In this document: one piece after another, positions 40,606-57,200 of the stretch | Layout of the letters: each line of letters opens with the position of its first letter | How positions within the stretch are numbered: position 1 is the stretch's first letter | Source of the DNA: Methanocaldococcus indicus | GTDB taxonomy: Archaea; AGJL01; Methanococci; Methanococcales; Methanocaldococcaceae | Assembly (NCBI RefSeq): GCF_049554935.1 | Contig: NZ_CP186926.1 | Span: forward strand, 1,088,001 to 1,152,000 | Length of the DNA stretch: 64,000 bases | Direction: 5' to 3' | Translations under genes and position numbers: made by a program | The notes under the pieces: model-generated | What the model was told of the DNA's origin: nothing | Databases searched by the model: none | The model's input: the letters and a program-made list of their open reading frames with translations, nothing else

Positions 40606-40648
40606 TTATAAATATATGCTATTATTTTAATATATTGTCTTGTATTTT
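40606..40648 (+). repeat. 43-bp direct repeat, left boundary of island (att-like)
   Basis: TTATAAATATATGCTATTATTTTAATATATTGTCTTGTATTTT, identical to 52176-52218. Confidence 0.9.
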
Positions 40649-40780: not shown

Positions 40781-41480
40781 ATGCTAACCACACTTAAAGA
40801 ATTACTCGTTAATGGTTTAAATACTTTAGGTATAGCCAATTCGGATAACTTGGTAGATTACTGCTTGGTTAGAACTTTAACCGAGATAAAGACAATTAAA
40901 GCAATATCTGGAGAGATTTTAGAAATTCATCGAACAACCATAATCAAAAAACTTCAAAAGCTATCGGAAATTGAGAACTGCTTTTATACTCATCTACTAA
41001 ACCTTCCCAACATTTTAAATAATCGTAAATTTAAATTTTCAATAATAATTGATTCAACCTTATTGAGAAGATATAGTAAAAATGTATTTGTTTGGCAGTT
41101 CTATTAGATACAATTACGTAGAAAATCATAAAAAATTATATCAAGAACAAATAAACTGCTGTATTTTTAATAAAAAAAAGGATTATACGATATACACCAC
41201 AATAAAACCAAGGAATATTAAATCGACTGATGTATATTTAAGAATTATAGAATCAATATCTAAAATTATTAAGAAAACGGTCGTTGGTGATGGTTTTGTA
41301 ACAATAAAGAAAATTTTAAGGAGATGTAATGAATTGGGAATCAATTATATTGGTAGAATCAGAAAAAACATAAAAATTGAAGTTTTCGGTAAAGATGTTA
41401 AAATAGAAGATATGTTTAAAAAGGACTTCAACGAAAATAAAGCTAAATTTTGTGATTTTCTTTACATAAATTATTTATAA
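40781..41480 (+). pseudogene. Frameshifted, truncated DDE transposase (IS701/IS4-like)
   Basis: Two overlapping frames; IIIDSTLL (first Asp), VVGDG (second Asp), NYIGRIRKN; no C-terminal Glu region. Confidence 0.7.
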
Positions 41481-41671
41481 TACCTAAAATAAAGTTATAT
41501 AACGTTACTGTATCATACTTCCTATATCTTCTATTGTATCTTTTCCAGTATCCGGGTCTTTTTTTGCATTTTTCTTCACTCATATTTTTTATTACTTCAT
41601 TATACATTTTTATGTTTTTTCGACAACCTTACACATATAGAAATTATTTTTTGTTATTTTTTGGTGAGAGT

Positions 41672-42604
41672 ATGAAAGTTGGAATTACAGCAATAGTTCC
41701 ACCTGAGATTATTTACGCAACAAATCATACACCTTTAGATTTAAACAACTTTGTTCCACAATCTAATATAACTCCAAAAAATAAACTATGTGCCTGGACT
41801 GCTACATGGAGGGACTTAATTTTAGAGGATAAAATTAAAATTGATAAATTAATTGTTGTTGCAGGTGGAGATTGCCAAAATTCCCTTGTTGATGCTGAAA
41901 AGATAGAATTAAAGAAAAAAATTCCAACACATTATTTCTTTTATCAATTTGGAGATAAAAAGCACTTTGAAAATGAAATAAAAAAACTTATTAATTTTTT
42001 AGGAGGAGATGTTGATAAAGATATTTTAAGAGAAGTTTACAAAATAAAGAAACTTGTAAAAAAAGTCGATGAATTATGCTACAAAGACAAAATAAATGGG
42101 AAAGATGCGTTTTATACTATAATCTCTGCAAGCGATTTAAAAGGAAATCCAGACGTATATAAAAAAGAAATCAATAATTTATTAAACAAAGATGAAAATG
42201 TCGAATATAGTCATAGAATTGCTATAATAGGAATTCCTCCAATTTTTATAGATTTTTATGAATATTTAAATGAAATAAATGTACATTGTGTTTATAATGA
42301 GCTACCTTATGAGTTTATAAGAATGGGAGGATATTCAATAAAGAGTATTGTAGATACATATTCAACATACACATTTGCTAACCATATAAATAAAAGGATA
42401 AAGATTATAAAGAGAGAGCTAAAAAAAAGAAAGGTCGATGGAGTAATTCATTATACCCAAATGTGTTGCCATCATAAATTGGAAGATGAAATTCTCAGAG
42501 AATTTATTGATTATCCCATGCTAACAATAGAGGGGGATATTCCTCAAAAAACACCTGAACAAACAAAGTTAAGGATAGAAGCATTTATAGAATTGTTGGG
42601 ATAG
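41672..42604 (+). CDS. 2-hydroxyacyl-CoA dehydratase (HgdB/FldB D-component)-like Fe-S protein
   Basis: PPEII, KLCAW, GDC, DGVIHYTQMCC, PMLTIEGD...QTKLRIEAFIE; ATG at 41672 follows GGTGAG. Confidence 0.85.
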   Translation: MKVGITAIVPPEIIYATNHTPLDLNNFVPQSNITPKNKLCAWTATWRDLILEDKIKIDKLIVVAGGDCQNSLVDAEKIELKKKIPTHYFFYQFGDKKHFENEIKKLINFLGGDVDKDILREVYKIKKLVKKVDELCYKDKINGKDAFYTIISASDLKGNPDVYKKEINNLLNKDENVEYSHRIAIIGIPPIFIDFYEYLNEINVHCVYNELPYEFIRMGGYSIKSIVDTYSTYTFANHINKRIKIIKRELKKRKVDGVIHYTQMCCHHKLEDEILREFIDYPMLTIEGDIPQKTPEQTKLRIEAFIELLG

Positions 42605-42606
42605 CC

Positions 42607-43287
42607 ATGATAGGTATTGATGTTGGTTCAACAAACATAAAAATCGTAGACGGGAAGAGTTTTAAAAAATATCCAATAATTAAATTAAATGAAATATTAG
42701 AAAAATATAATAATGAAGAATCTTTTGCGACTGGATATTTTAGAAAGAGATTTAAAAATTACATAACTGAAATTACTGCTGCTATATATGGAATTGATAA
42801 AGATGTTGAAGTTATAATCGATATTGGGGGACAAGATACAAAGATAATAAACACAAAAACATTAGAGTTTATAATGAATGATAAATGTGGAGCAGGGACT
42901 GGATTATTTTTACAAACTATAGCAATGTATTTAAATGTTCCTATCGAAGATTTTGGAAAATATTATTCAAAAAATCCTCTAAACTTGAATAATACTTGTG
43001 CTGTTTTTTCAATTTCAGAAATAATTAACTACCTCGTGAGTGGCTATACTATTAAAGATATTATAGCATCTGTAAATTACACTATAGCAAAGAAAATAGC
43101 TAATATTAATCCCTATGAATGTGAAACTCTTACTCTAATTGGTGGAGTTGCAGAAAATAAAGCATTTGTGAGATATTTTAAAGAAATTACTGAGAAAGAA
43201 GTTTATGTTCCTAAAAATCCGCAATTTATAAATGCAATAGGGGCGAGAAAATATGGAATTAAATACTCAACAAAAAATCATCTTTGA
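42607..43287 (+). CDS. Acyl-CoA dehydratase activase (HgdC/BadF-type ASKHA ATPase, Fe-S)
   Basis: GIDVGST, ATGY, DIGGQDTK, NDKCGAGTG, CAVF, GGVA.N. Confidence 0.92.
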   Translation: MIGIDVGSTNIKIVDGKSFKKYPIIKLNEILEKYNNEESFATGYFRKRFKNYITEITAAIYGIDKDVEVIIDIGGQDTKIINTKTLEFIMNDKCGAGTGLFLQTIAMYLNVPIEDFGKYYSKNPLNLNNTCAVFSISEIINYLVSGYTIKDIIASVNYTIAKKIANINPYECETLTLIGGVAENKAFVRYFKEITEKEVYVPKNPQFINAIGARKYGIKYSTKNHL

Positions 43288-43828
43288 AATTTACGATTTA
43301 TACAAAAAATTTGAATTAATTGAAAGTAATAACAAATGTAAAAAGCTATCTAAAAGAATAGAAAAAATTAAAAATGGAATTGTAGTTAAAGATATTTATG
43401 ATGTTAATTATGTTGATAGAGTTCAGGAGATTTTATTAAATTACAGAGAAATTTGGGGTTTTATTTATAAATCATCAATAAAACAGTGGATTGCAACATC
43501 TAAAACTATAAATGTAGCTGGAATTTTTTATAAGGATGATTTAATTGGAGTTATGGTTTATGGAGAGAGACCAAATTATTTGAAAATTAATTACATTGCA
43601 GTAGATAAAAAATTTAAAGATAAATCTCTTGGAGGATATTTTATTCAATTTTTAGAGAAAAAAGCTAAAAAATTAAAAAAGAAAAAAATATATGCAGAAG
43701 TTCCAAAAATAAATGAGAATGGACTAAGATTTTTTATAAAAAATAGATTTGTAATTGAAGGAATTTTAAAAAATCATACAAGAAGGGACAAAGATTTAGT
43801 TTTAATGGCTAAATATTTAGAGGGATAA
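43253..43828 (+). CDS. GNAT family acetyltransferase
   Basis: IAVDKKFKDKSLG (motif A-like), N..GLRFF.K.RF..EG.L (motif B). Confidence 0.8.
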   Translation: MELNTQQKIIFEIYDLYKKFELIESNNKCKKLSKRIEKIKNGIVVKDIYDVNYVDRVQEILLNYREIWGFIYKSSIKQWIATSKTINVAGIFYKDDLIGVMVYGERPNYLKINYIAVDKKFKDKSLGGYFIQFLEKKAKKLKKKKIYAEVPKINENGLRFFIKNRFVIEGILKNHTRRDKDLVLMAKYLEG

Positions 43829-43829
43829 A

Positions 43830-44756
43830 ATGGTGGAATTTTTTGCATCGTTGACCATTTCTCCAGGACAAATTAGAAAAATGGTTGAACTTTTAAAGAA
43901 ACACGAACCAAAAAAATGGGCTTTTGAAAATGTGATTTTTACACCGATAGTTTCATCAGAAGGGACTATAAAAGAAATTAAAAATTTAAAAAGAAAATAT
44001 AAAACAACTATTATGTTTGATAGTGGTGGTTATTATGTTCAACAGGGAAAGTTTGAAATATATCAACTGTTTTCCTTTTTAAGGGAATTTTATGAAAACA
44101 ATAAATGGGGAGATTGGTATGTTCTACCAGATTCTCCACCAGTGTCATCTGATAGTATAAATATTGCTTGGGGAAAAGTCCATGAGACAGTTTATTTTGC
44201 AAAGAGTTTTGCAGAAGAATTTAATGGAAAAATAGAGAAAAAATTTGTTCCTGTTGTTCAGGGCATTAATGAAGAACAAATCTATTATTGTATCAAAAAT
44301 TATGCTGATTTGAATGTTAAAAGAATAGGTTTTGGAAGTTTTGGAACTTGTGGAAAGAATAATCAGATTAATCGACTAACAAAAGAAAGTTTAGAAAACT
44401 TAAAATATTTGTCTATGTTAGCAAGAGATTATGGATTTGAGTTACATGCCTTTGGTATTGGTGGAGGAAGTTCTGTAAATAAAATTAAAGACTATGTTGA
44501 TAGTTTTGATAGTAGTGGTTGGGATAAAGCTGGAGGATTTGGAGACATATTTTTTCCAGGTTCGAGAACTATTAACATAACTGGAAAATCTGGAAGAATA
44601 TCTTCAAAAAATTACATAGGTTATGAAGATATGATTGAAAATCTTAGAAATGGGCATAGGTGTTATTTTTGTAAAAATATTGCCAATCTAAAAAAATATA
44701 AGATATATCGGTCATTACATAATATAATAGTGCTTTATGAAATGGTGAAAGAATGA
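43830..44756 (+). CDS. tRNA-guanine transglycosylase-like protein (DpdA-like, probable DNA base-exchange enzyme)
   Basis: MFDSGGY, VLPD, VPVVQG, LHAFG, DSFDSS and Zn site HxCxxC...LHN; lacks arcTGT C-terminal/PUA domains. Confidence 0.8.
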   Translation: MVEFFASLTISPGQIRKMVELLKKHEPKKWAFENVIFTPIVSSEGTIKEIKNLKRKYKTTIMFDSGGYYVQQGKFEIYQLFSFLREFYENNKWGDWYVLPDSPPVSSDSINIAWGKVHETVYFAKSFAEEFNGKIEKKFVPVVQGINEEQIYYCIKNYADLNVKRIGFGSFGTCGKNNQINRLTKESLENLKYLSMLARDYGFELHAFGIGGGSSVNKIKDYVDSFDSSGWDKAGGFGDIFFPGSRTINITGKSGRISSKNYIGYEDMIENLRNGHRCYFCKNIANLKKYKIYRSLHNIIVLYEMVKE

Positions 44757-45493
44757 GTAGGGGATATCACATTCAACATAATGCAAAACCATCAATTATT
44801 AGAGAATTTATTGAATACAGTCCAAATGCTAAAAAATCAGAACTTAAAGAAGTGTTTTTAAATATAAAACCCAGCATTATAGATGATAATTATACAATTA
44901 TGAATAAACTTATTAATAGAGAAGATAAAAATGAGATTGAAAACCTTTTGAAAATGGATGAGGTAATATTTAATAATTATCTTCATTATAAGCTCTATTC
45001 ATCATCTTTACCAATTGGATGGTCATATAGAAGTGTAATTCATATATTATTTGAAGAATATAAGGATAAAAAAATAAATTACAACGATATTGAACAAAAA
45101 GTTAAAGATAAAGCATTTAATGAAGGTTTGGGAAGTATATCATTTAGTAGCAATAGTGTTCGTGGAGCAATTAATTTTATTAAATCTTTATACCCTTCTC
45201 CAATAGATGAAAATAACATATTCAACCTCAGAGATTATTGTCAACCACATCTCTTATTATGGGGAGTGGATTATCTTTATAAAAAACAATGGGGAGAGGA
45301 ATATGGTTCATTAATGCTTTTGGATAGTGAAAAAATTGAAGAACTTTGTAAATTTTGTTTAATTGATGAAGATGTGTTGGACAATCATTTAAAGGAACTT
45401 GGATTTATGTATGATTTTGTGGAAATATCGATAAAGGCATTTGGGAAGTATATAAGATTAAAAAGAGCTTGGAGTTTTAATGATATCTTATAA
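44753..45493 (+). CDS. Hypothetical protein, possibly BrxA-like winged-helix component
   Basis: ATGA overlap with the upstream gene; no catalytic motif recognised; call is positional. Confidence 0.45.
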   Translation: MSRGYHIQHNAKPSIIREFIEYSPNAKKSELKEVFLNIKPSIIDDNYTIMNKLINREDKNEIENLLKMDEVIFNNYLHYKLYSSSLPIGWSYRSVIHILFEEYKDKKINYNDIEQKVKDKAFNEGLGSISFSSNSVRGAINFIKSLYPSPIDENNIFNLRDYCQPHLLLWGVDYLYKKQWGEEYGSLMLLDSEKIEELCKFCLIDEDVLDNHLKELGFMYDFVEISIKAFGKYIRLKRAWSFNDIL

Positions 45494-45505
45494 AAGGGGA
45501 AAATA

Positions 45506-46015
45506 ATGGATTATATTGTACTAATAAACTATATCAAAAATAATTATTCTTTTAATTGGCTAACAAATAGTCAGAAAAATGCGTATAATATATTAAAAGA
45601 GTATCTTATTTATGATGATGTTATTAATCTTTATGGAAAAAGAGGAGTAGGGAAAACATTTTTAGGATGGGTATTTGCAAAAAATAACAACTTTATATAT
45701 TTTGAAAATGAAGATGCATTTAGAAATTATAAAGTAAAGACAAAAATAAATGCAATTATTGATAATGGCTCATTGAAGGATGGAAGGGAGATTAGAAGGA
45801 TGGTCTCCTTAAAAACCAATAAAGTAATTTACATTTCAAGAAAGAAAATTTTAGATTATGGTATAGAGTTAAAGTTAGATTTAAATGATGTAGAACATGT
45901 TTTAAATAATCTATCTCCAATTATTGGAGAAAATATAAATACTAACATTCAAAATTTGAAAATAAATGATATCGATTTATGGAACATTTTTAAGGGGAGG
46001 GTATATGAATATTAG
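45506..46015 (+). CDS. Small P-loop NTPase (BrxF/BrxB-like)
   Basis: Walker A GKRGVGKT, Walker B-like AIIDN; 169 aa; precedes the large ATPase. Confidence 0.6.
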   Translation: MDYIVLINYIKNNYSFNWLTNSQKNAYNILKEYLIYDDVINLYGKRGVGKTFLGWVFAKNNNFIYFENEDAFRNYKVKTKINAIIDNGSLKDGREIRRMVSLKTNKVIYISRKKILDYGIELKLDLNDVEHVLNNLSPIIGENINTNIQNLKINDIDLWNIFKGRVYEY

Positions 46016-49000
46016 TGTATTAGAATTTATAATAAATAAAAGTCCAGTAGTAGATACACAATCAGCCGAAAATTTAATAAATGAACCAGATTCAGTTGCA
46101 GATAAGTATGAAAATCATTTAAAAACCTATATAAAAGTTGATAATGAAGAATTTGATAAGCGATTTGTGAGAGAAATTAAAAAAGGAAAAACTGTAAAAG
46201 GTTATATTTCCGCTCCTTTTGGTTATGGAAAGACAAGTAAAGCATTAAGTTTATGGGAATATTGTAAAAAGAATAACATCTTTTCCATCCCTCCATTTAA
46301 ATTTGATGGAAAGCTTGATACAATAATGGACGCAGTTTATGGATGGACTAGATATGTTTATAAATACAAATATCCTGAATATGTGGACAAAATTGAAAAA
46401 ATTTATAGAAAATATAAAACACTAAGTATAGAAAAAGAAATAGATGAACTGGCAAAAAAAGAACACTTAACGAGAGATGAAGCAAAAAGAATAATTAATA
46501 ATTTCATAGAAAAAGGTAAACTAATTATATCAATGACACCAAAGGACTTGATGAATTTTTTAAAAGAGATGAATGAGATTATAAAAAAACATTTTGATGG
46601 ATTGGCAATTTTTGTAGATGAAGTGCAAGGAATAAAAAATATGGAAACTATTAATAATTTAAGAAACTTTATTTTCGAACTTAGTATTAACAATATAGGA
46701 TTAGGTATTTTATTCATAATTCCTGATTATCAAGAAGAGGACTTAAATATAAGAGCAGGAGATTTAATTGACAGATTACGAAAAGATGGATTTTACTTAA
46801 ATTTAGTAAATATATACAATGTAGATTTTGCAGAAAAATTATGGAAAAAATATGGAGAACTTTTACAATTTAATCCTTATGATATTATAACAAAGGACTG
46901 TTTAAGAAGTATTGGAGAAATATCTTCAAGAGATGATTTAGGAAAAGGTCCAAGAACTGTCATAGGGGCATTTAAATGTGCTTGTATGAAATATAAAGAA
47001 AAATTTGAGCCATACAATGTGTTTGATTTTGTTAATGATATTTTAAATGGTAAAATCGCATACATACAACAAAAATATTTAGATGCTTTAAATGAGGGGC
47101 TATCATTGAAGAAAGTTAATTCCGAAGAAAAAAGAAATGTTATTAAATTATTAGGGGCATTCCCGAGAGGAATAAGTGAAGAAATGATAAAAAAGTATGG
47201 CTTATATGATGAGTATGAAGAACTATCAGATGCTTATTATGGAACTGAGATTGTTTATGCACTTGAGGGATATACTCTAAGAGGATTATTAGACGAAACA
47301 CCAGATGGCTATGTCGAACAGCATATAAGGAAATTTAGAAGTGTATTTGATGAATCTTGGGAGGACGAGATGATTAATGCTTTTATAAATTATATATTAC
47401 CTGAAATTTTCCCAAAGAAAAAAGGATCTCAGATTGTAGGGTGGAGATTTGATAAAAAATACCCAATAAGTAATGGATATTATCACCAACTAACTGGGAC
47501 ATTTAATCCAAAATATCCTTTTAGAATTGTTGGGATATATTCTTTGAGGAAAGAACTTAAAGAAAAAGAAATGACGCTTATTAAAAATTTGGTTAATAAT
47601 GAGTCACCAGATGTTGAATTTAAATTTATATTAGATAAAAACATAGAAAATAACGATTTGATAATTAACTATAAAAATGGAGAAGTTATCTTTAAATTTG
47701 ATGTTTTAAAGAAAGTTGGAGAAGATAAATTACCTGGAGATTTGAAAAAACTTCAACAATATGTTAAACCACAAGAAGTTACGCCAATGTTTATGTTATG
47801 TCTTTTAGATTACTTTGACAAAATAAAAGAAAAAGAAGATGAATATGCAAAGTATGGGGGTGAAATTAATGCATTAAGGTCTATTCTTGTAAGATATTTA
47901 AAAAGATTTTTGTTTTCTGATGAGTTGGCAGAAAAATACGAGTTAAGGAAAAGACAAGAAAAAATAGTCGAAGAAATATTTAATAGAATTTGTGAATATA
48001 AATTTAAAGATTATAGAACATTAATTCATTCTCCAAACTGGCATAGAGATTTAGAGAGATATAGAATTTTATTGGAATCACTTTCAATTTCAAAAAGAAG
48101 GGGTGAAGAATTTGAAACTACTAAAAAAGAACTAGTTTCTAAATTGACTGGAAGTAAGAATCCAAGTGTTGCAGGATTCGATGATGAATGTAAAAATGGA
48201 AAATGGAAGGACTTGATATATTTGGAATATTGGGGTAAAGGAGAAAAAATTAAGGTTAAATTAAAAAAGCATCAACTTGAAGAAAGGATATTAAAAGAAT
48301 TCATTGAAAAATGGACACAACCAATAAGTATTGATGTAATAATTAATTATGGAATTAATTTGGGATACATTCCAGAAGAAGTCGAAGAAATTTTAAAAAT
48401 CCTTGAAAGTAGGAAATACATTGAAATTGATAAAGGATATATATTCAAACTTGAGGAGATAACAAACACTGATGTTTTAAATAAATTTGATGAAATTGAA
48501 AAACTTGCGAAGAAAGTTGCCAATCTTTATAAAAAATATGGAAAAGATATCCCAAACATCCCCATAAAATTATCTAAAAAAGATGAAATTAAGAACCAAA
48601 ATGATTCTGATTTATTATACAAAGAATTAGAACTTTTGGAAAGTTGGGAAAAAACATTAAAAGGATATCATAAGATGATTAAAAATGAAATAGATAAAAA
48701 TAAGGAAGAACTACTAAATGAAATCATAAAAACAAGGGAAAAAACAGAAGGACTAAAAAAGAAAATAGATGACATAAAAGAGGATATTATAAAGACCCAT
48801 TATTCATTAGGGGGAATTGTTAAGCATTTAGAAGAACAAATAAAGATAACAAAAAAGAAATGTAATAAGATATCGAGAGATTTATTGGAATTGAGAGAAA
48901 AAATAAACTCTTCAAGAGATATTGAAACTCTTGCCGAGATTTTAAATATTGCAAATAAAGAAATGGAACGTTTAAGAAAAGAACATACTGACATTAATGA

Positions 49001-49841
49001 AAAATATAATAAATTTAAATCTTGGTTAGCAATTCTTAGAAAATTAGAAGAATTACATGAAAAAATAGATTCCTATAAGGATTATATTGATATTGATGAA
49101 GAATATGAAAGATTTAACGAACTAATAGACGAAATAATAACTAACTTTGCAAGAGATGGGTGGGATTATCTAAACATGGATAAGGACGTTGAAAAAGATA
49201 TAGAATTAATAGAAAAAGACATAAAGAAAAAAGAAAGTAATTTAAGAAACGAATTTAATAAGATTCAAGATGAAATAAAAACAAAAATGGTTATCTTATC
49301 TCAAACACTAAAATCGTTAGATGTTTCTCCGTATTCATACAGAGAAGCATTTAGTATTGAAGATAGAGAGACAGCATACCAAAATCTTGTAAGAAATGTG
49401 AGGTTGTATCTCCAAGAAATTTTAAACAAGTTACATGACTATATTATATCATTAAAAACTGAAGTAGAGGTTAAATTGGGTAATAATGAAAATTATATAA
49501 CTATACTAAAGGAAATAGAAGATAAATTGGACAATATAAATATAGAAATTATAGAAAAAAATAATTTAATAACTGCTGTTGAAGAAATAAAATCAAATAT
49601 ACTTGATATATGGGAAGAAATAGAGAAGACTAGAAAAGAAATAAAAAGAGAAATTATTGAAAAAAATAAATCTGGTAAGTCAGAAGAAGAAATAAAAATA
49701 ATAGAATTATTAAACAAATATGGTGAAATTTCCATTAAAGAACTTACAAAACATTTAAACATGCCTATCGAGGGGACGTTAAAATGTCTATTGAATATGG
49801 AGAATATAGAAATAATTGTAAGGAAAAGATGGAAAAAATAA
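46005..49841 (+). CDS. Large P-loop ATPase with C-terminal coiled coil (BrxC/PglY-like)
   Basis: Walker A APFGYGKT, Walker B IFVDE, DRL arginine-finger-like, GPR sensor-like; long coiled coil; ATG at 46005 follows GGGGAGG. Confidence 0.7.
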   Translation: MNISVLEFIINKSPVVDTQSAENLINEPDSVADKYENHLKTYIKVDNEEFDKRFVREIKKGKTVKGYISAPFGYGKTSKALSLWEYCKKNNIFSIPPFKFDGKLDTIMDAVYGWTRYVYKYKYPEYVDKIEKIYRKYKTLSIEKEIDELAKKEHLTRDEAKRIINNFIEKGKLIISMTPKDLMNFLKEMNEIIKKHFDGLAIFVDEVQGIKNMETINNLRNFIFELSINNIGLGILFIIPDYQEEDLNIRAGDLIDRLRKDGFYLNLVNIYNVDFAEKLWKKYGELLQFNPYDIITKDCLRSIGEISSRDDLGKGPRTVIGAFKCACMKYKEKFEPYNVFDFVNDILNGKIAYIQQKYLDALNEGLSLKKVNSEEKRNVIKLLGAFPRGISEEMIKKYGLYDEYEELSDAYYGTEIVYALEGYTLRGLLDETPDGYVEQHIRKFRSVFDESWEDEMINAFINYILPEIFPKKKGSQIVGWRFDKKYPISNGYYHQLTGTFNPKYPFRIVGIYSLRKELKEKEMTLIKNLVNNESPDVEFKFILDKNIENNDLIINYKNGEVIFKFDVLKKVGEDKLPGDLKKLQQYVKPQEVTPMFMLCLLDYFDKIKEKEDEYAKYGGEINALRSILVRYLKRFLFSDELAEKYELRKRQEKIVEEIFNRICEYKFKDYRTLIHSPNWHRDLERYRILLESLSISKRRGEEFETTKKELVSKLTGSKNPSVAGFDDECKNGKWKDLIYLEYWGKGEKIKVKLKKHQLEERILKEFIEKWTQPISIDVIINYGINLGYIPEEVEEILKILESRKYIEIDKGYIFKLEEITNTDVLNKFDEIEKLAKKVANLYKKYGKDIPNIPIKLSKKDEIKNQNDSDLLYKELELLESWEKTLKGYHKMIKNEIDKNKEELLNEIIKTREKTEGLKKKIDDIKEDIIKTHYSLGGIVKHLEEQIKITKKKCNKISRDLLELREKINSSRDIETLAEILNIANKEMERLRKEHTDINEKYNKFKSWLAILRKLEELHEKIDSYKDYIDIDEEYERFNELIDEIITNFARDGWDYLNMDKDVEKDIELIEKDIKKKESNLRNEFNKIQDEIKTKMVILSQTLKSLDVSPYSYREAFSIEDRETAYQNLVRNVRLYLQEILNKLHDYIISLKTEVEVKLGNNENYITILKEIEDKLDNINIEIIEKNNLITAVEEIKSNILDIWEEIEKTRKEIKREIIEKNKSGKSEEEIKIIELLNKYGEISIKELTKHLNMPIEGTLKCLLNMENIEIIVRKRWKK

Positions 49842-50734
49842 AGACTCCATGTTACTTAAAAATAAAACATAAACTTTCACTTCTATTTTCTGATTTTGAA
49901 GACATCTCCTATAATGATTTCTGGTTAATGGTAGACAACCCAAATAAAAAACTTCCTCAGAAAAAATTTGTTATAACCGATAAATTTGATTATAGATTAC
50001 CTATTTATGAAATAAATCATAATCCTTTTACACCAGAATTAAACAAAATTATTAGTGAAAAATATCATCTAATTGAAAAATATGTTAAGACACAAAGAGA
50101 TATTAAAGATTATATCGTTGATTATGTTAATACCAAAACTCCAAAAACTGTTATTTTGTATCTTATTGATGGACTATCGTATTGGGACTATATAAATGCA
50201 AGCATAAAATATAATGTTGAACCAATATTTGTCAATGGAAAAACAACAACCGAAAATGGGCTTAAAAATATTGTTTATGGAAAAAATGGCATACCTATTG
50301 CAAAAGAACTTTATAAGTTTGGATATAAAGGCTACGGACAAACTTATTGGAATAGAAAAAATAAATTAACAGATATTTTGTTTAGATACATAAGTGAAAA
50401 GAACATTTTTTATTATGATGAAAACATACACGACATAATAGTTAAAAATAAACAATCAAAGAAATATATTCAAATTTATAAAATTGGATTAGATGATGAT
50501 GCACATAAGTTAAGAGAAGTTAGTAAAAAAAGTATAATTAATAAAATAAAAGAAATATTTGAAAATATAAACATCTTAAGAGATATTCTAAATCAAACTA
50601 ATCAGCCTTATCTTATAGTAATTACTGCTGACCATGGTATAAAGTGGGATTTTACAAAAAAATATAGAAAAGGTTCTCATGGAAACATTTCATTTGAGGA
50701 GTGTTTTGTGCCTTTAATTATAATTGAGGGGTAG
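49829..50734 (+). CDS. PglZ-like alkaline-phosphatase-superfamily protein (core domain only)
   Basis: LIDGL, KTTT, DDDAH, ITADHG, SHG.IS.EE..VP motifs in PglZ order. Confidence 0.82.
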   Translation: MEKIKTPCYLKIKHKLSLLFSDFEDISYNDFWLMVDNPNKKLPQKKFVITDKFDYRLPIYEINHNPFTPELNKIISEKYHLIEKYVKTQRDIKDYIVDYVNTKTPKTVILYLIDGLSYWDYINASIKYNVEPIFVNGKTTTENGLKNIVYGKNGIPIAKELYKFGYKGYGQTYWNRKNKLTDILFRYISEKNIFYYDENIHDIIVKNKQSKKYIQIYKIGLDDDAHKLREVSKKSIINKIKEIFENINILRDILNQTNQPYLIVITADHGIKWDFTKKYRKGSHGNISFEECFVPLIIIEG

Positions 50735-50736
50735 CT

Positions 50737-51897
50737 ATGTTATTTATTGGAAGAGAAAAACTAAAAGACAGATTAGGAGATGATGTGTATATAGATGCTT
50801 CAAAATCTCATGCAATTTTTATTTGTGGTAAAAGAGGTAGTGGAAAAAGTTATACTTTAGGTGTTTTAGTTGAAGAACTTCAAGAAAAATACTCCGAGTA
50901 TCTAAAAATTATTATCGACCCAATGGGGATATTTTGGACTATGGTAGAGCCAAATGAAGAACAGGAAGAAGAACTTTGGGATTGGGATTTATATCCAGAA
51001 AGATATCCTGTTAAGTTAATAGTCCCTGGGGAAATAGAGGAAAGATTTGACGAAGATGTTATAAAAGAAATGGAAAATAGGGGAGTAGAATTTAAAAAAC
51101 TTCTTTTGAATCCTTCTGATATCTCAGCAGAAGGATGGTGTGATTTATTCAATTTAAATATAAACGAAATTATGGGAATTGCTTTGTATAGGGCAATTGA
51201 TAATATTGAAAAAGATTTTTTCACAATAGATGATATTATTTATGAGGTTGAGATGGATACAAAATCAAAAGAATCTACAAAAGAAGCATTAATAAATCGT
51301 CTAAACATGGCAAAAAAGTGGGGAATTTTTTCAGATGAATACATTCCAATAGAAAATATTTTTGAAAAAAATTCAATAAATGTTATTGATTTAAGTGTTA
51401 TTGAAAGTGGAAGATATGGGTTAAGAGATTTGATTGTATCAATAATTGCAAAATACTTATTTAATCAACGATTGAAAGCAAGAAAAAAAGAAATGTTAAA
51501 TTTACAATCAAAAATGCCAAAAGTTTGGCTGTTTATTGACGAAGCACATAATTTTATTCCTTCTGGGAAATCAACATTATCAAAAGAAATTCTAATAAGA
51601 TGGGCAAAGGAAGGACGACAGCCTGGGTTAAATTTAGTTATAGCTACTCAACAACCATCAGCAATTGACAATGAAGTTTTAAGTCAATGTGATATAATCT
51701 TTGCTCATAAAGTGACTAATAGAGAAGATATAAATGCATTAAATAAGCTCAATCAAGAGTATATGGGAAAGGAACTAAAAGTATATATTAAAGATTTAAA
51801 TAAAGGAGAATGTGTTTTTATTGATGATGAAAAAGAATTCTTAAAAATTATAAAAATAAGAACAAGAAAAAGTAAACATGGAGGAGGAGAAAAGTAA
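50737..51897 (+). CDS. HerA/FtsK-family ATPase (DUF87)
   Basis: H..I.GKRGSGKSYT, IIDP.G, FIDEAHNF, EGR, ATQQP. Confidence 0.9.
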   Translation: MLFIGREKLKDRLGDDVYIDASKSHAIFICGKRGSGKSYTLGVLVEELQEKYSEYLKIIIDPMGIFWTMVEPNEEQEEELWDWDLYPERYPVKLIVPGEIEERFDEDVIKEMENRGVEFKKLLLNPSDISAEGWCDLFNLNINEIMGIALYRAIDNIEKDFFTIDDIIYEVEMDTKSKESTKEALINRLNMAKKWGIFSDEYIPIENIFEKNSINVIDLSVIESGRYGLRDLIVSIIAKYLFNQRLKARKKEMLNLQSKMPKVWLFIDEAHNFIPSGKSTLSKEILIRWAKEGRQPGLNLVIATQQPSAIDNEVLSQCDIIFAHKVTNREDINALNKLNQEYMGKELKVYIKDLNKGECVFIDDEKEFLKIIKIRTRKSKHGGGEK

Positions 51898-52175: not shown

Positions 52176-52218
52176 TTATAAATATATGCTATTATTTTAA
52201 TATATTGTCTTGTATTTT
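52176..52218 (+). repeat. 43-bp direct repeat, right boundary of island; contains the last codons and stop of the pilin-like gene
   Basis: Identical to 40606-40648. Confidence 0.9.
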
Positions 52219-52413
52219 CTTTGTAATGTTCATTGTTTTATTATTTAGTGCAGATACTACATTATTAACTGATTCATCAACTTGTTTCCAAGTATCTCTA
52301 ACTTCCTTTATATAGAAGTATGCTGCAATTGTAGAAACTACTACTGCTGCTAAAATTAATATTGCTAACTCCATAGAAATCTGTCCTCTTTCAGAATATA
52401 CTTTATTTATCAC
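52192..52413 (-). CDS. Class III signal peptide (type IV pilin-like) protein
   Basis: RG/QISME cleavage motif followed by a hydrophobic helix. Confidence 0.85.
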   Translation of the reverse strand: MINKVYSERGQISMELAILILAAVVVSTIAAYFYIKEVRDTWKQVDESVNNVVSALNNKTMNITKKIQDNILK

Positions 52414-52504
52414 GTAAATCCTAACCTCTTAGAATTTTGTTACTAAATACTTAACCAACTAAATTATATTGTATACTATATTAATTATTATCCTTTGTGA
52501 GAGT

Positions 52505-53152
52505 ATGGAGATTGGATTAAGTGTATTAGCAGAGAACAAAGTTGGAGTTTTACATAAATTAACTGGAGTAATTGCAAAATTAGGAGGTAATATTTTATAT
52601 ACTCAACAGTTTATAACCTCTGAAAATTATGGATTTATATATATGGAAGTTGAGGATATAGATATAGAGCAATTAAAAAAAGAACTTGATAAATGCAACT
52701 ACATTAAGGAGTATGAGATTCACAATACACTAAAAAAGATATTTGGGAAGAGAATAATTATTATTGGTGGAGGGGCACAAGTTGCAGAAGTGGCTAAGGG
52801 AGCTATAAGTGAAGCAGATAGACATAACATAAGAGGAGAAAGAATAAGTGTAGATACACTACCAATAGTTGGAGAGGAGAATATTGCTGAAGCAGTTGAA
52901 GCTGTTTTAAAACTTCCAAGAGTTGGAATTTTAGTTTTAGCTGGCTCATTAATGGGAGGAAAAATAACAGAAGCTGTTAGAAAAGTAAAAAGTAAGGGAA
53001 TTCCAATAATTAGCTTAAAAATGTTTGGTTCTGTCCCAAAAGAAGCTGATTTAGTTGTTGGAGACCCAATTCAGGCAGGCGTTTTGGCAGCTATGGCAAT
53101 AGCTAAAACAGCTAAATTTGATATAAATAAAGTTAGAGGGAAAGTTTTATAA
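52505..53152 (+). CDS. ACT-domain protein (DUF5612-like)
   Basis: N-terminal ACT (NKVGVL..LT..IA...GNI), GGGAQVA, RHNIRGERISVDT. Confidence 0.8.
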   Translation: MEIGLSVLAENKVGVLHKLTGVIAKLGGNILYTQQFITSENYGFIYMEVEDIDIEQLKKELDKCNYIKEYEIHNTLKKIFGKRIIIIGGGAQVAEVAKGAISEADRHNIRGERISVDTLPIVGEENIAEAVEAVLKLPRVGILVLAGSLMGGKITEAVRKVKSKGIPIISLKMFGSVPKEADLVVGDPIQAGVLAAMAIAKTAKFDINKVRGKVL

Positions 53153-54283: not shown

Positions 54284-55801
54284 TTATCTACCTATTAATC
54301 TTGATAAATCTTCTGATGTAACTATACCAACAACTCTGTTATTTTTATCTACAACTGGAATTCCAGATATTGAGTATTTTTCCATCTTTTTAGCTACTAT
54401 CTCAACTGGGTCTGTTTCTTTGGCAGTTATTACATTTATAGTCATTATTTCATCAATTGACTTCTTACCCAATGCTATGGCCTTAGCTATATCCCAAGAT
54501 GTAACAATTCCTAATAAAATACCATTTTCATCTACAATAGGAAGATGGTTAATATCATATTTCATTAATATTCTTGAAGCTTCTTCAATAGATATATGTG
54601 GTTTAGCAGTTATAGCTGGTTTTGTCATTATATCTCTAACTAAGATAACATCAGATTTCATTGGCTTACATTCTCCCTTTCCTAATGGTGCTACTCTTTC
54701 AGTTAATAAAAACTTTCCTTCCAATATCCATTTTTTTAATTCTTCTGCTACTTCTTTGGCTTTTTTATAGCTTGAAACTGAACCAGTTTTTATCTCTTTA
54801 AGAACTTTTTTGTTATCTATCTCTACCTCTAAACAAATCTTTCCACTTCTTAAATCTTTATATGTTGTTTTTCCAATTAATGGTCTTTCTCTTCTTGGAA
54901 CTCCATAGTCATATATAGGAACTTCAATATCCTCATCCCTTATAGCACATCTTTTGGCTATTTCTTCATTTAGAACAGGAATTGGAATCCCTAAACCAAT
55001 ATACAATGTTGGTCCATACATAGGCATTGTAGCTGCTCTTAAAAATTTATCACTTATCTCTTTTAAATTACCTTTAACCATTAAAGTTCCAAATGGAGGA
55101 TTATGTTGTGTTCCTTCTCCAACTATATACCCTACTCCTCCACCCAAGAATATTTTAGTCCCTATTCCTATTGTATTGTAACTGTTAGTTTTTGGATTAT
55201 AGTCATTTTGTAGAGGATTTAATTGTCCAGCTCCTGAGTAGTGTATATTTCCAAATTCAGGTAAGAGAACTCCCATATAAGTATAAATCTTCTCTTCTCT
55301 ACTGTTTGTAGCAGCAGCATAGGTTTGGTAGCAGTTCCTTGGATTTAACATAATTGCCTGATTTACATCATCTAAGGTAATTCTGATATTTATCTCCTTT
55401 CTTGGATAACAGTCAGTTGTATATCCTTCTGCATATAGCTCTATTTCTTTTCCTCTTACCAAATCTTCTATTACATGAGCTCCTCCATAATCTATATCAA
55501 TATCAGGGTCTTCATTTGGTTGAGCAGCTCCAATATATGTATCTACTGCTGCTAATCCACCATAAGCTAAAACATTATTTAGATAGATATTTAGCATTTT
55601 AATTGGAGGGTCTGCATGCCCAAAATTAAGAAAAACCCCTGATGAGCACATAGCTCCAAATGTTCCAGTGGTAACTACATCTACATACTCAGCTGCTTTT
55701 TTTGCCCCTTCTTCTTCAACAATTTTAATCATTTCCTCAGCAGTAACAACAACAGCCTCTCCTTTCTTAATTTTTTCATTTATTTGTTTTATTGTTTTCA
55801 T
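54284..55801 (-). CDS. Aspartate-semialdehyde sulfurtransferase (DUF39 + CBS; homocysteine biosynthesis)
   Basis: DVVTTGTFGAMCSSG, RNCYQ, TYMG; C-terminal CBS pair. Confidence 0.9.
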   Translation of the reverse strand: MKTIKQINEKIKKGEAVVVTAEEMIKIVEEEGAKKAAEYVDVVTTGTFGAMCSSGVFLNFGHADPPIKMLNIYLNNVLAYGGLAAVDTYIGAAQPNEDPDIDIDYGGAHVIEDLVRGKEIELYAEGYTTDCYPRKEINIRITLDDVNQAIMLNPRNCYQTYAAATNSREEKIYTYMGVLLPEFGNIHYSGAGQLNPLQNDYNPKTNSYNTIGIGTKIFLGGGVGYIVGEGTQHNPPFGTLMVKGNLKEISDKFLRAATMPMYGPTLYIGLGIPIPVLNEEIAKRCAIRDEDIEVPIYDYGVPRRERPLIGKTTYKDLRSGKICLEVEIDNKKVLKEIKTGSVSSYKKAKEVAEELKKWILEGKFLLTERVAPLGKGECKPMKSDVILVRDIMTKPAITAKPHISIEEASRILMKYDINHLPIVDENGILLGIVTSWDIAKAIALGKKSIDEIMTINVITAKETDPVEIVAKKMEKYSISGIPVVDKNNRVVGIVTSEDLSRLIGR

Positions 55802-55984
55802 AAAAAAATCCCTTTTCTTTTTTTGGTAAATTTATGTTTTGTTTTAAAAGTAATATTTAAAAGCTACTACTATTTAATTTGAATATATGGATATAAAATA
55901 GAACAAACTTGAATTTTATAATTAAGATTGTAAGCACAAAATAATTTTAGTCCTCTAAGTGATACGATTTTAACAATAAAAAAG

Positions 55985-56748
55985 ATTTCCATACCAAGGC
56001 GGTCTTATTTTAACAGTTATGAAAAAATATAATTTCAAAGTATGATATGAGATTTCCATACCGGGACGGTCTTATTTTAACATAAGTACGTGTTTGACTA
56101 TTGGGGAATTTGGCATAAATTTCCATACCGGGACGGTCTTATTTTAACTTTATACTTATTCCACAATTGGCTTATTTTTCTTTGATTTCCATACCGGGAC
56201 GGTCTTATTTTAACTGAATATCAACTATTTTTCCATTCAAATTCTCATAATCAATTTCCATACCGGGACGGTCTTATTTTAACTTTATGGAGAATGTATT
56301 CAATTGGTTGCACAAGCTTATTTCCATACCGGGACGGTCTTATTTTAACTGTAAATGAGTATGTTTTAAGCATATTGTTTTCAAATATTTCCATACCGGG
56401 ACGGTCTTATTTTAACTTGATATGTTCATATAAAAGCTCTTTATGCTCTTGAACAATTTCCATACCGGGACGGTCTTATTTTAACATAAGTATAATCAGT
56501 GTCAGTGTCATAATTAGTTCCGTCATTTCCATACCGGGACGGTCTTATTTTAACATAATGAAAAAAGTGAAGCTGAAAATAATGAAGCTAATTTCCATAC
56601 CGGGACGGTCTTATTTTAACGTTAATAAGTCAGAGGAAATTAAGCCAATTATATTTCCATACCGGGACGGTCTTATTTTAACTTAACTGCTTTATTGATT
56701 TCAAAATACACCAATTTAATTTCCATACCGGGACGGTCTTATTTTAAC
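55985..56748 (-). CRISPR. CRISPR array, 12 repeats / 11 spacers
   Basis: 30-bp repeat ATTTCCATACCGGGACGGTCTTATTTTAAC (+) starting at 55985 (degenerate), 56052, 56119, 56185, 56254, 56320, 56387, 56456, 56525, 56591, 56653, 56719; degenerate copy on the left and AT-rich leader on the right imply minus-strand transcription. Confidence 0.98.
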
Positions 56749-57200
56749 AGGAGGCACATTTTATACGTAATAATATAGCAACGTTCTCATATATAAGCTT
56801 TTTGGTACTAAAATTTTCGAAGGGTGGGTTTCCCTATTTATTTATATACCTTTGAACTTTTATAAAAATCTTTCTATTCCATATTTTTCAATTAAAAATT
56901 TTTTATATCTAAAAACTAAACCAATTTATCAGGGATTTTCAAATATTAAAGGAAACAACTTAAAACTCTAAAAAATCTCAATAAATTATATAATCTAAAT
57001 ATATAAAATATTAAAAATACAGACCCCCTCTGTATTTCCCCAAAAATCATTTAAATTAAAAATAAACAACTAAAATCCAATAAAATCAAAAAATAAAAAT
57101 TTTTAGCGTGATAATTGTTATCTGAATATATGGAAGTATATGCATTACCAACCAAAATATTTAAATAATAGTATTATTTATATAGTAAAGTTAGTTATTA
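56749..57200 (-). promoter_or_regulatory. CRISPR leader
   Basis: Non-coding AT-rich region next to the intact terminal repeat; minus-strand TATA-like AAAGCTTATATATG near 56788-56801. Confidence 0.7.

Follow-up and report, generated by a model that had tools for sequence, protein, structure and literature searches.

A probable nine-gene archaeal member of the BREX-Related Capture family on a mobile Methanocaldococcus island

We assign a nine-gene cassette of the heat-loving methanogen Methanocaldococcus indicus to the BREX-Related Capture (BRC) family, giving a probability of roughly 0.7 to the reading that it is an archaeal nine-gene form of BRC, carried on a mobile 11.5-kb Methanocaldococcus island and made up of a marking arm and a restriction/capture arm. 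BRC has been described, by computation only, in PMC12839542 (Rakesh & Krishnan, NAR 2026; preprint 10.1101/2025.10.09.681413), where its components are given as GNAT, TGT, DUF4007, STAND, DUF6079, PglZ, and HerA, and where it is reported from 45 taxa, HerA being universal and GNAT/TGT present in a subset. That computational paper is the only one on BRC we found in the literature, and we found no experimental work.

The window analyzed is a stretch of 64,000 nucleotides, in which nine + strand genes (g1 to g9), overlapping or nearly abutting, occupy positions 41672-51897 of a repeat-bounded island:

40606..40648, +: 43-nt perfect direct repeat, left copy (island boundary)
40781..41480, +: two overlapping ORFs (40781-41107 and 41082-41480), the remnant of a degenerate IS within the island near its left end
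41672..42604, +: g1, HGD-D/double-cubane-protein-like Fe-S enzyme (ATG, likely start; ORF from TTG 41534)
42607..43287, +: g2, ATP-dependent activase
43253..43828, +: g3, GNAT acyltransferase
43830..44756, +: g4, TGT-superfamily transglycosylase
44753..45493, +: g5, probable wHTH DNA-binding component, 246 aa
45506..46015, +: g6, P-loop NTPase, 169 aa
45966..49841, +: g7, BrxC-like ATPase, 1291 aa
49784..50734, +: g8, short PglZ, alkaline-phosphatase-fold metal enzyme, 316 aa
50737..51897, +: g9, HerA/FtsK-type translocase, 386 aa
52176..52218, +: 43-nt perfect direct repeat, right copy (island boundary)

The first four junctions, from g1/g2 to g4/g5, are a 2-nt gap, a 35-nt overlap, a 1-nt gap, and a 4-nt overlap, and the remaining four, from g5/g6 to g8/g9, are a 12-nt gap, a 50-nt overlap, a 58-nt overlap, and a 2-nt gap, the two large overlaps on either side of g7 being computed from the longest ORFs (the Atlas g7 starts at residue 14). 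The flanking repeat has two copies in total in the 1.44-Mb genome (up to 3 mismatches allowed; zero for the reversed control), and its right copy overlaps the final 27 nt of a class III signal-peptide (pilin-like) gene (52192-52413, - strand). Within the IS remnant, ORF 41082-41480 has a weak match to a DDE transposase (PF01609, E 1.5e-4, below cut-off). The island is probably mobile; it carries no integrase, and we looked for an empty insertion site in relatives and found none. Domain searches of the nine genes and of both transposase-fragment ORFs returned neither a methyltransferase nor a PAPS reductase. The earlier note had described a co-oriented nine-gene operon with gaps of at most 12 nt, bounded by repeats, free of those two enzyme types and in an archaeal host, and all of this stands, the host belonging to the same genus as Methanocaldococcus sp. 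FS406-22.

Pfam gives no match of their own to g5, g7, and g8. Profile-profile comparison with canonical BREX-1 proteins bears out the PglZ-like and BrxC-like identities proposed earlier: the g8 family aligns with six canonical PglZ proteins over 229 columns (hhalign 96%, E 4.4e-9), with DGLS, T, D..H, DHG, and HGG, i.e., all metal and nucleophile motifs, in register, and g7 aligns with nine BrxC proteins (78.5%, E 1.7e-5). All 12 off-target pairings of g5 to g8 with the four BREX families remain at an hhalign probability of 1.0% or less. We class g8 as a PglZ homologue whose catalytic motifs are intact. The product of g7, which has a Walker A motif (GYGKT), a Walker B motif (DE), a long helical C-terminal half, and a weak C-terminal wHTH (HTH_24, 3e-3), is a BrxC-like P-loop ATPase; PF10923 is seen in its family in 3/24 and 5/31, and the DUF6079 model gives no match to g7 in any of 5 genomes. 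The proposed HerA is likewise confirmed as a defense-type HerA, matching DUF87/HerA (1.4e-13), the PADLOC models HerA (1.5e-28) and mad8 (2.8e-24), and PDB 8xau (E 4.6e-17).

The remaining enzymes of the presumed marking arm are g3, a GNAT (PF00583, E 5e-7), and g4, for which the TGT and DpdA models score equally weakly (about 2e-3, below Pfam cut-offs). The two are fused in other phyla, with 7 GNAT-TGT fusions among the 120 relatives listed of the 318 found for g4. Residues D64, D101, Q150, GFGSFG, and D227 and an HxCxxC...H zinc site are invariant in g4, the catalytic columns being unchanged across 22 aligned sequences, and its nucleophile Asp and CxxC..H site align to those of the DNA-guanine transglycosylase DpdA (PDB 7ui4, E 1.1e-3) and of arcTGT (1iq8, E 4.8e-3). 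The g4 product is a TGT-superfamily enzyme whose active site is intact, retaining the zinc site, the purine-pocket residues, and the pair of catalytic Asp, and the earlier TGT/DpdA-like call holds, DpdA 7ui4 being the best solved relative. Guanine replacement may serve as the self mark. QueC is absent at E<=1e-20 in two of four bacterial hosts (G041 and G044), and therefore a self-made preQ0 donor is not general; no QueD-type PTPS was found in G041.

TGT enzymes mostly act on tRNA, and it could be argued that the GNAT/TGT-like module acts on host or virus tRNA, bringing about abortive infection or translational shut-off with no DNA self mark. The equal, weak scores of g4 are in keeping with this, as are the labels of its relatives, most of them tRNA-type PF01702 and only 7 among the 120 listed PF23859 (DpdA), the lack of DpdB and DpdC, and the hosts without preQ0 synthesis. 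We nevertheless consider an RNA target quite unlikely: a canonical arcTGT or tgt is already present in all six host genomes checked, g4 is invariably linked to g5 and the BrxC-like ATPase, its best solved relative by profile is a DNA enzyme, and PglZ and HerA are DNA-handling proteins.

g5 adjoins the TGT-like gene in 83 of 85 loci and is probably a wHTH DNA-binding component that fills the "DUF4007/BrxA-like" slot of the BRC paper. None of 25 g5 members matches DUF4007 at E<=5, PF13182 is found on the g5 gene in 0/5 genomes, and BrxA gives no signal (hhalign probability at most 1.2%); a protein language model places g5 near DpdG-like proteins (score 0.87), a lead only. In g6, a catalytically intact small P-loop NTPase, the Walker A motif (GxGKTF) and Walker B Asp are invariant; a search with g6 itself returns a weak P-loop, its family matches AAA_16 in 16/19 and nSTAND3 in 11/19 (E<=1), and there is no signal to BrxB (hhalign probability at most 0.4%). 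Its distribution follows PglZ and HerA and not TGT: g6 is found in 48 of 49 loci with PglZ and HerA and in none of the 11 lacking both, and we therefore place it in the restriction arm.

All nine genes recur in identical order in four other genomes of a set of 41 Methanococcales-centered genomes, with different flanks, indicating an association beyond what chance would give. More widely, cassette genes travel together in archaea and in no fewer than eight phyla of bacteria. The TGT-like, ATPase, and PglZ genes, whose co-occurrence the earlier note had proposed to look for, do co-occur across prokaryotes: of 83 nonduplicate TGT-seeded loci, 19 of which are truncated contigs, 48 carry the full series of TGT-like gene, g5, g6, g7, PglZ, and HerA, with one more lacking a detected g6 and one ending at the edge of the stretch examined. 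A further 11 consist of TGT, g5, and g7, with or without GNAT, and lack PglZ, HerA, and g6. Identity between cassettes is 46-73% for g6 and 49-81% for g7, vs. 83-96% for HerA, the faster divergence expected of specificity parts.

HerA/FtsK pumps have roles in transfer and segregation as well, and the repeat-bounded island with its IS remnant, patchy among close relatives (5/41 genomes), would suit a mobile-element module for DNA maintenance, partition, or transfer whose likeness to defense reflects shared ancestry only. This is very unlikely in our judgment, as the 11.5 kb contain no integrase, relaxase, or replication gene, a viral contig collection gave only three relatives, and variants swap in other defense-type effectors, e.g., an SNF2 helicase with an RNase T exonuclease (L030). 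To our knowledge, the PglZ and BrxC pair occurs only in BREX-type defense.

The first two genes are conserved accessories of archaeal cassettes, adding two Fe-S enzyme genes. g1 (310 aa from ATG 41672) belongs to the HGD-D fold family (PF06050, E 3.9e-28; NF040772, 1e-10, below cut-off in the family search; PDB 7yyl/6eno, about 1e-4) and has three conserved Cys, as in 2-hydroxyacyl-CoA dehydratases and double-cubane proteins, and g2 is a bona fide activase (BcrAD_BadFG/CoA_E_activ, 1.4e-25; TIGR00241, 136.1 bits against a cut-off of 125.4) that keeps both ligand Cys of the bridging cluster. Unlike the dehydratase alpha/beta pair, g1 is a single short subunit, and unlike known dehydratase/double-cubane systems it is embedded in a defense cassette.

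It is unlikely that the system consists of the seven BRC genes alone, with g1 and g2, and perhaps g3, as an unrelated metabolic pair hitch-hiking with no defense role. The pair occurs in all six archaeal but none of the 77 bacterial TGT-seeded loci, and the main text of PMC12839542 names seven components only. On metagenome contigs, g1-g2 pairs with 43-56% identity to cassette-linked g1 stand among housekeeping genes (ArgRS, GatE, PAN, and CBS genes) with no BRC gene, so that a role as a defense module is not inherent to the pair. Against hitch-hiking, it is translationally coupled to g3 and kept in all five Methanococcales cassettes despite differing flanks; g1 orthologues (at least 78% identity) occur only in the five cassette-bearing genomes of 41, the other 36 having at most 29-42% paralogues or two fragments. 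In Methanosarcina, g1 is found in 2/31 genomes, the same two that hold the cassette HerA (100% and 96% identity), and in each of them it immediately follows HerA, at the opposite cassette end; in the g1 tree, the two archaeal g1 groups belong to separate clades.

Compared with known systems, the locus comes closest to BRC. The earlier note had found no named system of this architecture, yet PMC12839542 describes all seven component types seen here, and there, too, GNAT and TGT are occasionally fused. Common to both are a PglZ lacking the additional BREX domains, a large BrxC-like ATPase, a small active P-loop NTPase, a DNA-binding-type protein of ~250 aa, HerA/FtsK, and a sparse but phylogenetically wide distribution that includes archaea. 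The locus differs in the HGD-D-like/activase pair (the terms hydroxyglutaryl, BadF, and dehydratase have no occurrence in the BRC main text), in the DUF6079 and DUF4007 labels, which HMMER does not reproduce on its genes, and in our count of at least 49 full loci (GTDB species representatives, TGT-seeded scan) against 45 taxa; the 11 loci without HerA or PglZ likewise differ from the universal HerA of that account. Since BRC is described there, the catalogued match that the earlier note had named as telling against its proposal exists in the literature, but not in PADLOC-DB 2.0.0, which recognizes only HerA in the cassette. The earlier note's picture of a BREX/Dpd/HerA hybrid is largely right, as to the PglZ, BrxC, HerA, and TGT-like identities and the lack of a methyltransferase, but not as to the architecture being unnamed.

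Type 1 BREX (e.g., E. coli HS; BrxA, BrxB, BrxC, PglX, PglZ, BrxL) shares the homologous ATPase and PglZ, a small protein that precedes the ATPase, and an operon-encoded enzyme presumed to mark self, whereas the locus lacks the PglX methyltransferase and BrxL, has a PglZ of 316 aa vs. about 865 aa, shows no sequence-profile likeness of g5 and g6 to BrxA and BrxB, and adds HerA, GNAT, and the TGT-like enzyme. Dpd (DpdA-DpdB-DpdC with DpdD-K), as described in PMC10164549 and PMC10516641, likewise includes a paralogue of TGT that presumably swaps guanine in DNA; unlike it, the locus lacks DpdB (ParB-like ATPase), DpdC, and preQ0 genes and has a GNAT partner, which Dpd is not known to have. Moreover, g4 forms a separate clade with a DpdA Pfam match below cut-off, and some hosts of such loci lack QueC. 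HerA-anchored systems (Sir2-HerA, DUF4297-HerA, DndFGH-type capture) share the hexameric-pump family, but the partners here are PglZ and BrxC-like proteins instead of Sir2, DUF4297, or DndF/G, and g9, at 386 aa, is short relative to the matched PDB HerA chains (500-696 aa).

Under the BRC reading, a marking arm of GNAT, TGT-like enzyme, g5, and the BrxC-like g7 would replace guanine of the host DNA with a purine analogue that is modified and probably acylated, site choice and ATP-driven access coming from g5 and g7, and a restriction/capture arm of the PglZ nuclease/phosphodiesterase, the g6 NTPase, and the HerA translocase would target unmarked incoming DNA. In methanogens, the low-potential Fe-S enzyme and ATP-driven activase encoded by g1 and g2 would most likely make or tailor the donor for the marking arm. 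To a kind of system already described by computation in 2026, our analysis adds that a 7-deazaguanine donor made by the host itself is not a universal feature, that the TGT-g5-g7(-GNAT) set also exists without PglZ, HerA, and g6, and that, among the TGT-seeded loci, archaeal versions alone carry the g1/g2 pair.

The cassette of nine genes on the repeat-bounded 11.5-kb island (g1 to g9) is, as judged from its predicted proteins, best assigned to the BREX-Related Capture (BRC) systems, because its gene content matches seven of the seven BRC components. [quoted passage not shown] The same text calls the STAND NTPase a BrxB homologue and the tripartite DNA-binding DUF4007 protein BrxA-like, reports BRC from 45 taxa, three archaeal classes among them, and proposes insertion of dPreQ0 with the STAND NTPase in place of DpdB (PMC12839542). 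An earlier note had taken the architecture to be unnamed, which no longer holds, since these seven components had already been described, by computation only; its reading of the locus as a hybrid of BREX, Dpd and HerA elements was essentially right by composition (PglZ, BrxC-like ATPase, HerA and TGT-like enzyme). The terms Methanococc*, dehydratase and activase are absent from the main text of PMC12839542, the supplements of which may list such loci and genes, and a full-text literature search for “BREX-related capture” found no other paper.

The close packing and common orientation of the genes noted at first reading are borne out by nine + strand ORFs running from 41534 or 41672 to 51897, the junctions of which are overlaps of 4–58 nt or gaps of 1–12 nt. 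The bounding repeat is equally real: a perfect 43-nt direct repeat (40606–40648 and 52176–52218) that has only these two copies in the whole 1.44-Mb genome. The island lies among housekeeping genes and an orphan CRISPR array, with the following features at its edges and beyond:

40781–41480, just inside the left repeat: a pair of ORFs that overlap each other; the downstream one matches a DDE transposase family weakly (PF01609, E 1.5e-4)
52192–52413, − strand: class III signal-peptide gene (archaeal pilin-like, 73 aa), the last 27 nt of which lie under the right repeat
54284–55801: homocysteine-biosynthesis gene, on one side of the CRISPR array
57543–58403: pseudouridine synthase gene, on the other side of the CRISPR array

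The ORF pair looks like a decayed insertion sequence, and the overlap of the right repeat with the signal-peptide gene suggests that the island integrated into the 3' end of that gene. We found no integrase on the island, and no empty site among the relatives searched: in none of them are the flanking leuA-like, VWA and ACT-DUF5612 genes mutually adjacent, the synteny being too scrambled. The CRISPR array (55980–56764) has 12 repeats of about 30 nt, ATTTCCATACCGGGACGGTCTTATTTTAAC, at a spacing of 62–69 nt; the ORFs scanned to its left and right include no cas gene. A 36-nt similarity between 41661–41696 and 52494–52529 corresponds to the GGTGA-type ribosome-binding site and start codon of two genes.

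We compared g5 to g8 by hhalign with alignments built from canonical BREX-1 loci (E. coli HS and eight diverse plasmids; nine sequences each for BrxA, BrxB and BrxC, six for PglZ); single E. coli HS BrxA, BrxB and BrxC sequences were powerless in this comparison, and the multi-sequence alignments were used instead. The PglZ-like assignment of g8 is upheld at 96% probability (E 4.4e-9) over 229 columns in which the catalytic motifs line up, and that of g7 as a large BrxC-like ATPase at 78.5% (E 1.7e-5) over 309 columns of the N-terminal ATPase; none of the 12 off-target pairings between g5–g8 and the four BREX families rose above 1.0%. With 316 aa, g8 aligns to residues 470–738 of canonical PglZ and is, as in the BRC description, a PglZ without the extra BREX-PglZ domains. 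The 19 aligned members of its family share invariant DGLS, T, D..H, DHG and H(G)G motifs, the metal and nucleophile motifs of the alkaline-phosphatase fold. A precomputed PglZ domain is present on four of 10 g8 relatives. Other searches with g8 are weak: Pfam scans of single members detect PglZ in 2/19, and the family profile matches PDB sequences at E 0.03 (a PorX-type PglZ domain) and E 0.22 (PglZ 9zn5). In g7, Walker A (GYGKT) and Walker B (DE) are invariant, and BrxC_BrxD (PF10923) is detected on 3/24 aligned members and 5/31 database relatives. Direct family searches gave no match for g5, g7 or g8, and single-sequence searches of the PDB with g4, g7 and g8 returned nothing useful.

The family labels of the BRC description are not recovered by HMMER on the corresponding proteins of five host genomes, neither DUF6079 (PF19557) on g7 (0/5) nor DUF4007 (PF13182) on g5 (0/5); they presumably rest on HHpred and structure. 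The 246-aa g5 has no Pfam match and only scattered sub-threshold HTH matches, and a protein of its size and position is present in 83/85 loci. The small P-loop protein g6, a weak P-loop match by direct family search, has an invariant Walker A (GxGKTF) and Walker B aspartate and weak matches (E ≤ 1) to AAA_16 in 16/19 members and to nSTAND3 in 11/19. By sequence profile, g5 reaches at most 1.2% hhalign probability with BrxA and g6 at most 0.4% with BrxB; no profile likeness appears even with 87- and 58-sequence alignments, and neither BrxA (DUF1819) nor BrxB (DUF1788) gives a Pfam match on the two proteins. In G042, a poribacterial genome that hosts one of the compared loci (L053), a true DUF4007 protein (2.1e-86) is encoded away from that locus (C1:426449–428223), beside a long ORF that DUF6079 matches weakly; the two possibly belong to a second, BREX-type locus of this genome. 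The HerA assignment of g9 is firm (DUF87/HerA, E 1.4e-13; defense-type HerA structure 8xau, E 4.6e-17). Of the two detection tools suggested earlier, PADLOC (PADLOC-DB 2.0.0) sees only this protein, through its HerA models and mad8, and gives zero matches for the other eight.

The TGT-like g4 lies below the family cut-offs, with E values of about 2e-3 for both TGT and DpdA (PF23859: E 2.4e-3, 17.3 bits against a cut-off of 27). Searched against PDB sequences, its family profile retrieves the DpdA structure 7ui4 (“DNA-guanine transglycosylase”) first, at E 1.1e-3, and arcTGT 1iq8 second, with the nucleophile aspartate and the zinc motif aligned in both. D64 (FDSGG), D101 (LPD), a GFGSFG loop, D227 (FDS) and HxCxxC...H are invariant in 22 aligned members, and Q150 is nearly so; partly from these alignments and partly from general TGT enzymology, we take the conserved columns to be catalytic and purine-pocket residues. 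The preceding gene, g3, is a GNAT (E 5e-7); a GNAT is present in 62 of the 64 non-truncated TGT-seeded loci, apparently fused to the TGT-like gene in 21, and among 318 g4 relatives GNAT fusions account for 7/120 of the matches listed. A viral contig collection contains only three g4 relatives, one of them a fused GNAT-TGT with g5 and g7, and there is no sign of a viral counter-module among the three.

The cassette shares the BrxC/PglY-type ATPase and PglZ pair with BREX types 1–6 by hhalign, but it lacks the PglX/BrxX methyltransferase or the type 4 PAPS-reductase module (family searches confirm that neither domain occurs in g1–g9 or the two island ORFs, as first noted), as well as any BrxA/BrxB signal at the sequence level. 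Unlike Dpd, it encodes no DpdB (ParB-like ATPase) or DpdC (DUF328) among the nine proteins (Pfam, NCBIfam). With MADS, which has eight mad genes including a methyltransferase and a kinase, it shares the g9 match alone (mad8, 2.8e-24).

The same genes co-occur widely, as the first reading required. Five of 41 related genomes, the window's own among them, encode the g7 protein, and the four others carry the complete set of nine genes in unchanged order between different flanking genes; identities to the genes of the window are 83–96% for HerA, 49–81% for g7 and 46–73% for g6. In Methanothermococcus sp. Ax23 (L012:11684–16028), a 4.4-kb insertion between g5 and g6 holds four co-oriented ORFs of 749, 215, 195 and 290 aa, the last from the RAMP superfamily (2.9e-19). 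The TGT-like alignment, searched against 185,579 species-representative genomes, found 124 relatives, and the 80 loci kept, together with fetched loci, make a set of 85 (83 without duplicates), which we annotated with iterated HMMs of the nine proteins. The hosts are Chloroflexota, Poribacteria, Latescibacterota, Gemmatimonadota, Armatimonadota, Bacillota, Acidobacteriota and others. The full TGT-g5-g6-g7-PglZ-HerA order is present in 48 of the 83. Eleven loci are minimal (L030:16410–20920, L038, L045, L057, L068 and L069 among them), consisting of TGT-g5-g7 and a GNAT, with g6, PglZ and HerA absent within at least 9.8 kb downstream; the rest comprise one locus without a detected g6, one cut at the end of its fetched sequence, 19 on truncated contigs and three unclassed. 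In L030, genes for a 1075-aa SNF2-type helicase, a 207-aa product and an RNase T-like exonuclease come after the minimal module, and five loci carry a tandem g5-g7-g5-g7 duplication.

From the composition of the TGT-seeded loci, g5, the BrxC-like ATPase and the GNAT make up the invariant core that surrounds the base-exchange enzyme. The small NTPase g6 is found in 48 of 49 loci with PglZ and HerA versus none of the 11 minimal loci; it travels with PglZ and HerA, and a place in the restriction arm is therefore likelier than a part in the base insertion proposed for it in PMC12839542. By analogy, this placement would parallel the BrxB-PglZ sub-complex described for type 1 BREX (10.1101/2025.03.26.645558).

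The first two genes set the archaeal loci apart: g1/g2 are present in 6/6 archaeal and 0/77 bacterial TGT-seeded loci. The pair resembles 2-hydroxyacyl-CoA dehydratases and DCCP in having an HGD-D Fe-S subunit (g1, E 3.9e-28) and a BcrAD_BadFG activase with its cluster cysteines (g2, TIGR00241 dehydratase activase, 136.1 bits against a cut-off of 125.4); three cysteines are conserved in g1 and both activase cluster cysteines are kept in g2. Dehydratases proper are alpha/beta heterodimers of two HGD-D paralogues, whereas the cassette has a single HGD-D gene. Among solved structures, g1 is nearest to 7yyl and 6eno (“Dehydratase family protein”), and the NCBIfam double-cubane reductase model matches its C terminus below cut-off. 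Among the 41 related genomes, g1 orthologues (78–91% identity) occur only in the five that bear the cassette, the other matching genomes having only a 29–42% paralogue; the only other HGD-D copy of the window's genome is a 34% paralogue outside the cassette. Two of the 41, in which g7 was not found, carry short g1 remnants, at G019:C69:10906–11091 (89% identity over residues 1–62) and G013:C1:600443–600595 (71% over residues 18–68, with a TGA), possible relics of lost cassettes.

In Methanosarcina sp. UBA7, g1/g2 lie at the opposite end of the cassette, directly after HerA. Of 31 Methanosarcina genomes sampled, two have g1, the same two that have the cassette HerA (100% and 96% identity); g1 lies directly downstream of it in both, and the remaining 29 have no g1 at E ≤ 1e-20. 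In metagenomes, the g1 alignment retrieved 23 loci: four full-length genes at 74% identity or more, followed by g2, GNAT, TGT and more where the contig allows; thirteen at about 45–53% identity to the window's g1, twelve of them with g2 and none with a BRC gene; and six short fragments at contig ends. Where flanks suffice, the stand-alone g1-g2 loci have housekeeping neighbors such as ArgRS, GatE, PAN and CBS; stand-alone pairs (L109, L111, L115 and L120) also have an enoyl-CoA hydratase among their neighbors. In the g1 tree, the Methanococcales cassette genes form one clade (100/100), and the long branch of the Methanosarcina g1 arises in the opposite half. Hence g1/g2 are an archaeal two-gene module with an existence of its own, joined to BRC cassettes in two orders, and the differing cassette positions and g1 clades suggest that it was attached twice. 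It probably serves the marking arm (GNAT, TGT-like, g5 and g7) as a functional accessory. A 34% g1 paralogue lies about 150 nt from QueC in the window's own genome (G000:C1:160663–162095), an adjacency we set aside as probable coincidence because it is not kept in other genomes, where the distance ranges from 13 kb to >700 kb.

The genome of the window has arcTGT and QueC and no QueF; QueF is also absent from the Methanosarcina host G045, and a canonical tgt or arcTGT is present in all of five other host genomes searched. At E ≤ 1e-20, QueC is absent from two of four bacterial host genomes, the Chloroflexota G041 and G044, where QueF-like matches are sub-cut-off only; G041 also has no QueD-type PTPS. 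Since these two hosts lack QueC, a self-made preQ0/preQ1 donor cannot be the general rule, and the donor base is either salvaged or not a 7-deazaguanine. The simple proposal that g1/g2 replace QueF is weakened by the same two hosts, which have neither QueC, a confident QueF nor g1/g2. Known 7-deazaguanines of DNA include N-methyl and N-formyl dPreQ1, and the passages of PMC10516641 considered here mention no acetyl form or GNAT; an N-acyl derivative as the product of the GNAT partner is speculative.

A joint reading, to which we give roughly one chance in eight, would combine these elements. In methanogens, g1/g2 would be a new Fe-S enzyme of nucleobase chemistry, ATP-driven and low-potential, that supplies the GNAT/TGT arm with its donor, for instance by reducing the preQ0 nitrile to the aminomethyl without QueF, followed by acylation by the GNAT. 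An N-acyl-7-deazaguanine not yet described would then be the BREX-type self mark in the DNA of these hyperthermophiles, and, more generally, different restriction arms would plug into TGT-g5-BrxC-like as a free-standing module for base exchange in DNA.

The mechanism of BREX is still unsettled, and to our knowledge all studied BREX types mark self by methylation or phosphorothioation. What is new here is the nine-gene archaeal variant with its Fe-S enzyme/activase pair, the free-standing module of TGT, g5, BrxC-like ATPase and GNAT, the placement of g6 in the restriction arm, and the doubt cast on the donor base, the QueC-less hosts warning that it may not be a host-made 7-deazaguanine. The archaeal-only pair is a lead to the donor chemistry, and with cultivable methanogens as cassette hosts (relatives: Methanocaldococcus sp. 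FS406-22, Methanocaldococcus sp. 16A, Methanothermococcus sp. Ax23 and Methanosarcina barkeri 3), the predicted BRC is directly testable by nucleoside mass spectrometry. If true, a BREX-type core with a base-exchange enzyme would represent a third kind of self mark and would join the Dpd and BREX worlds.
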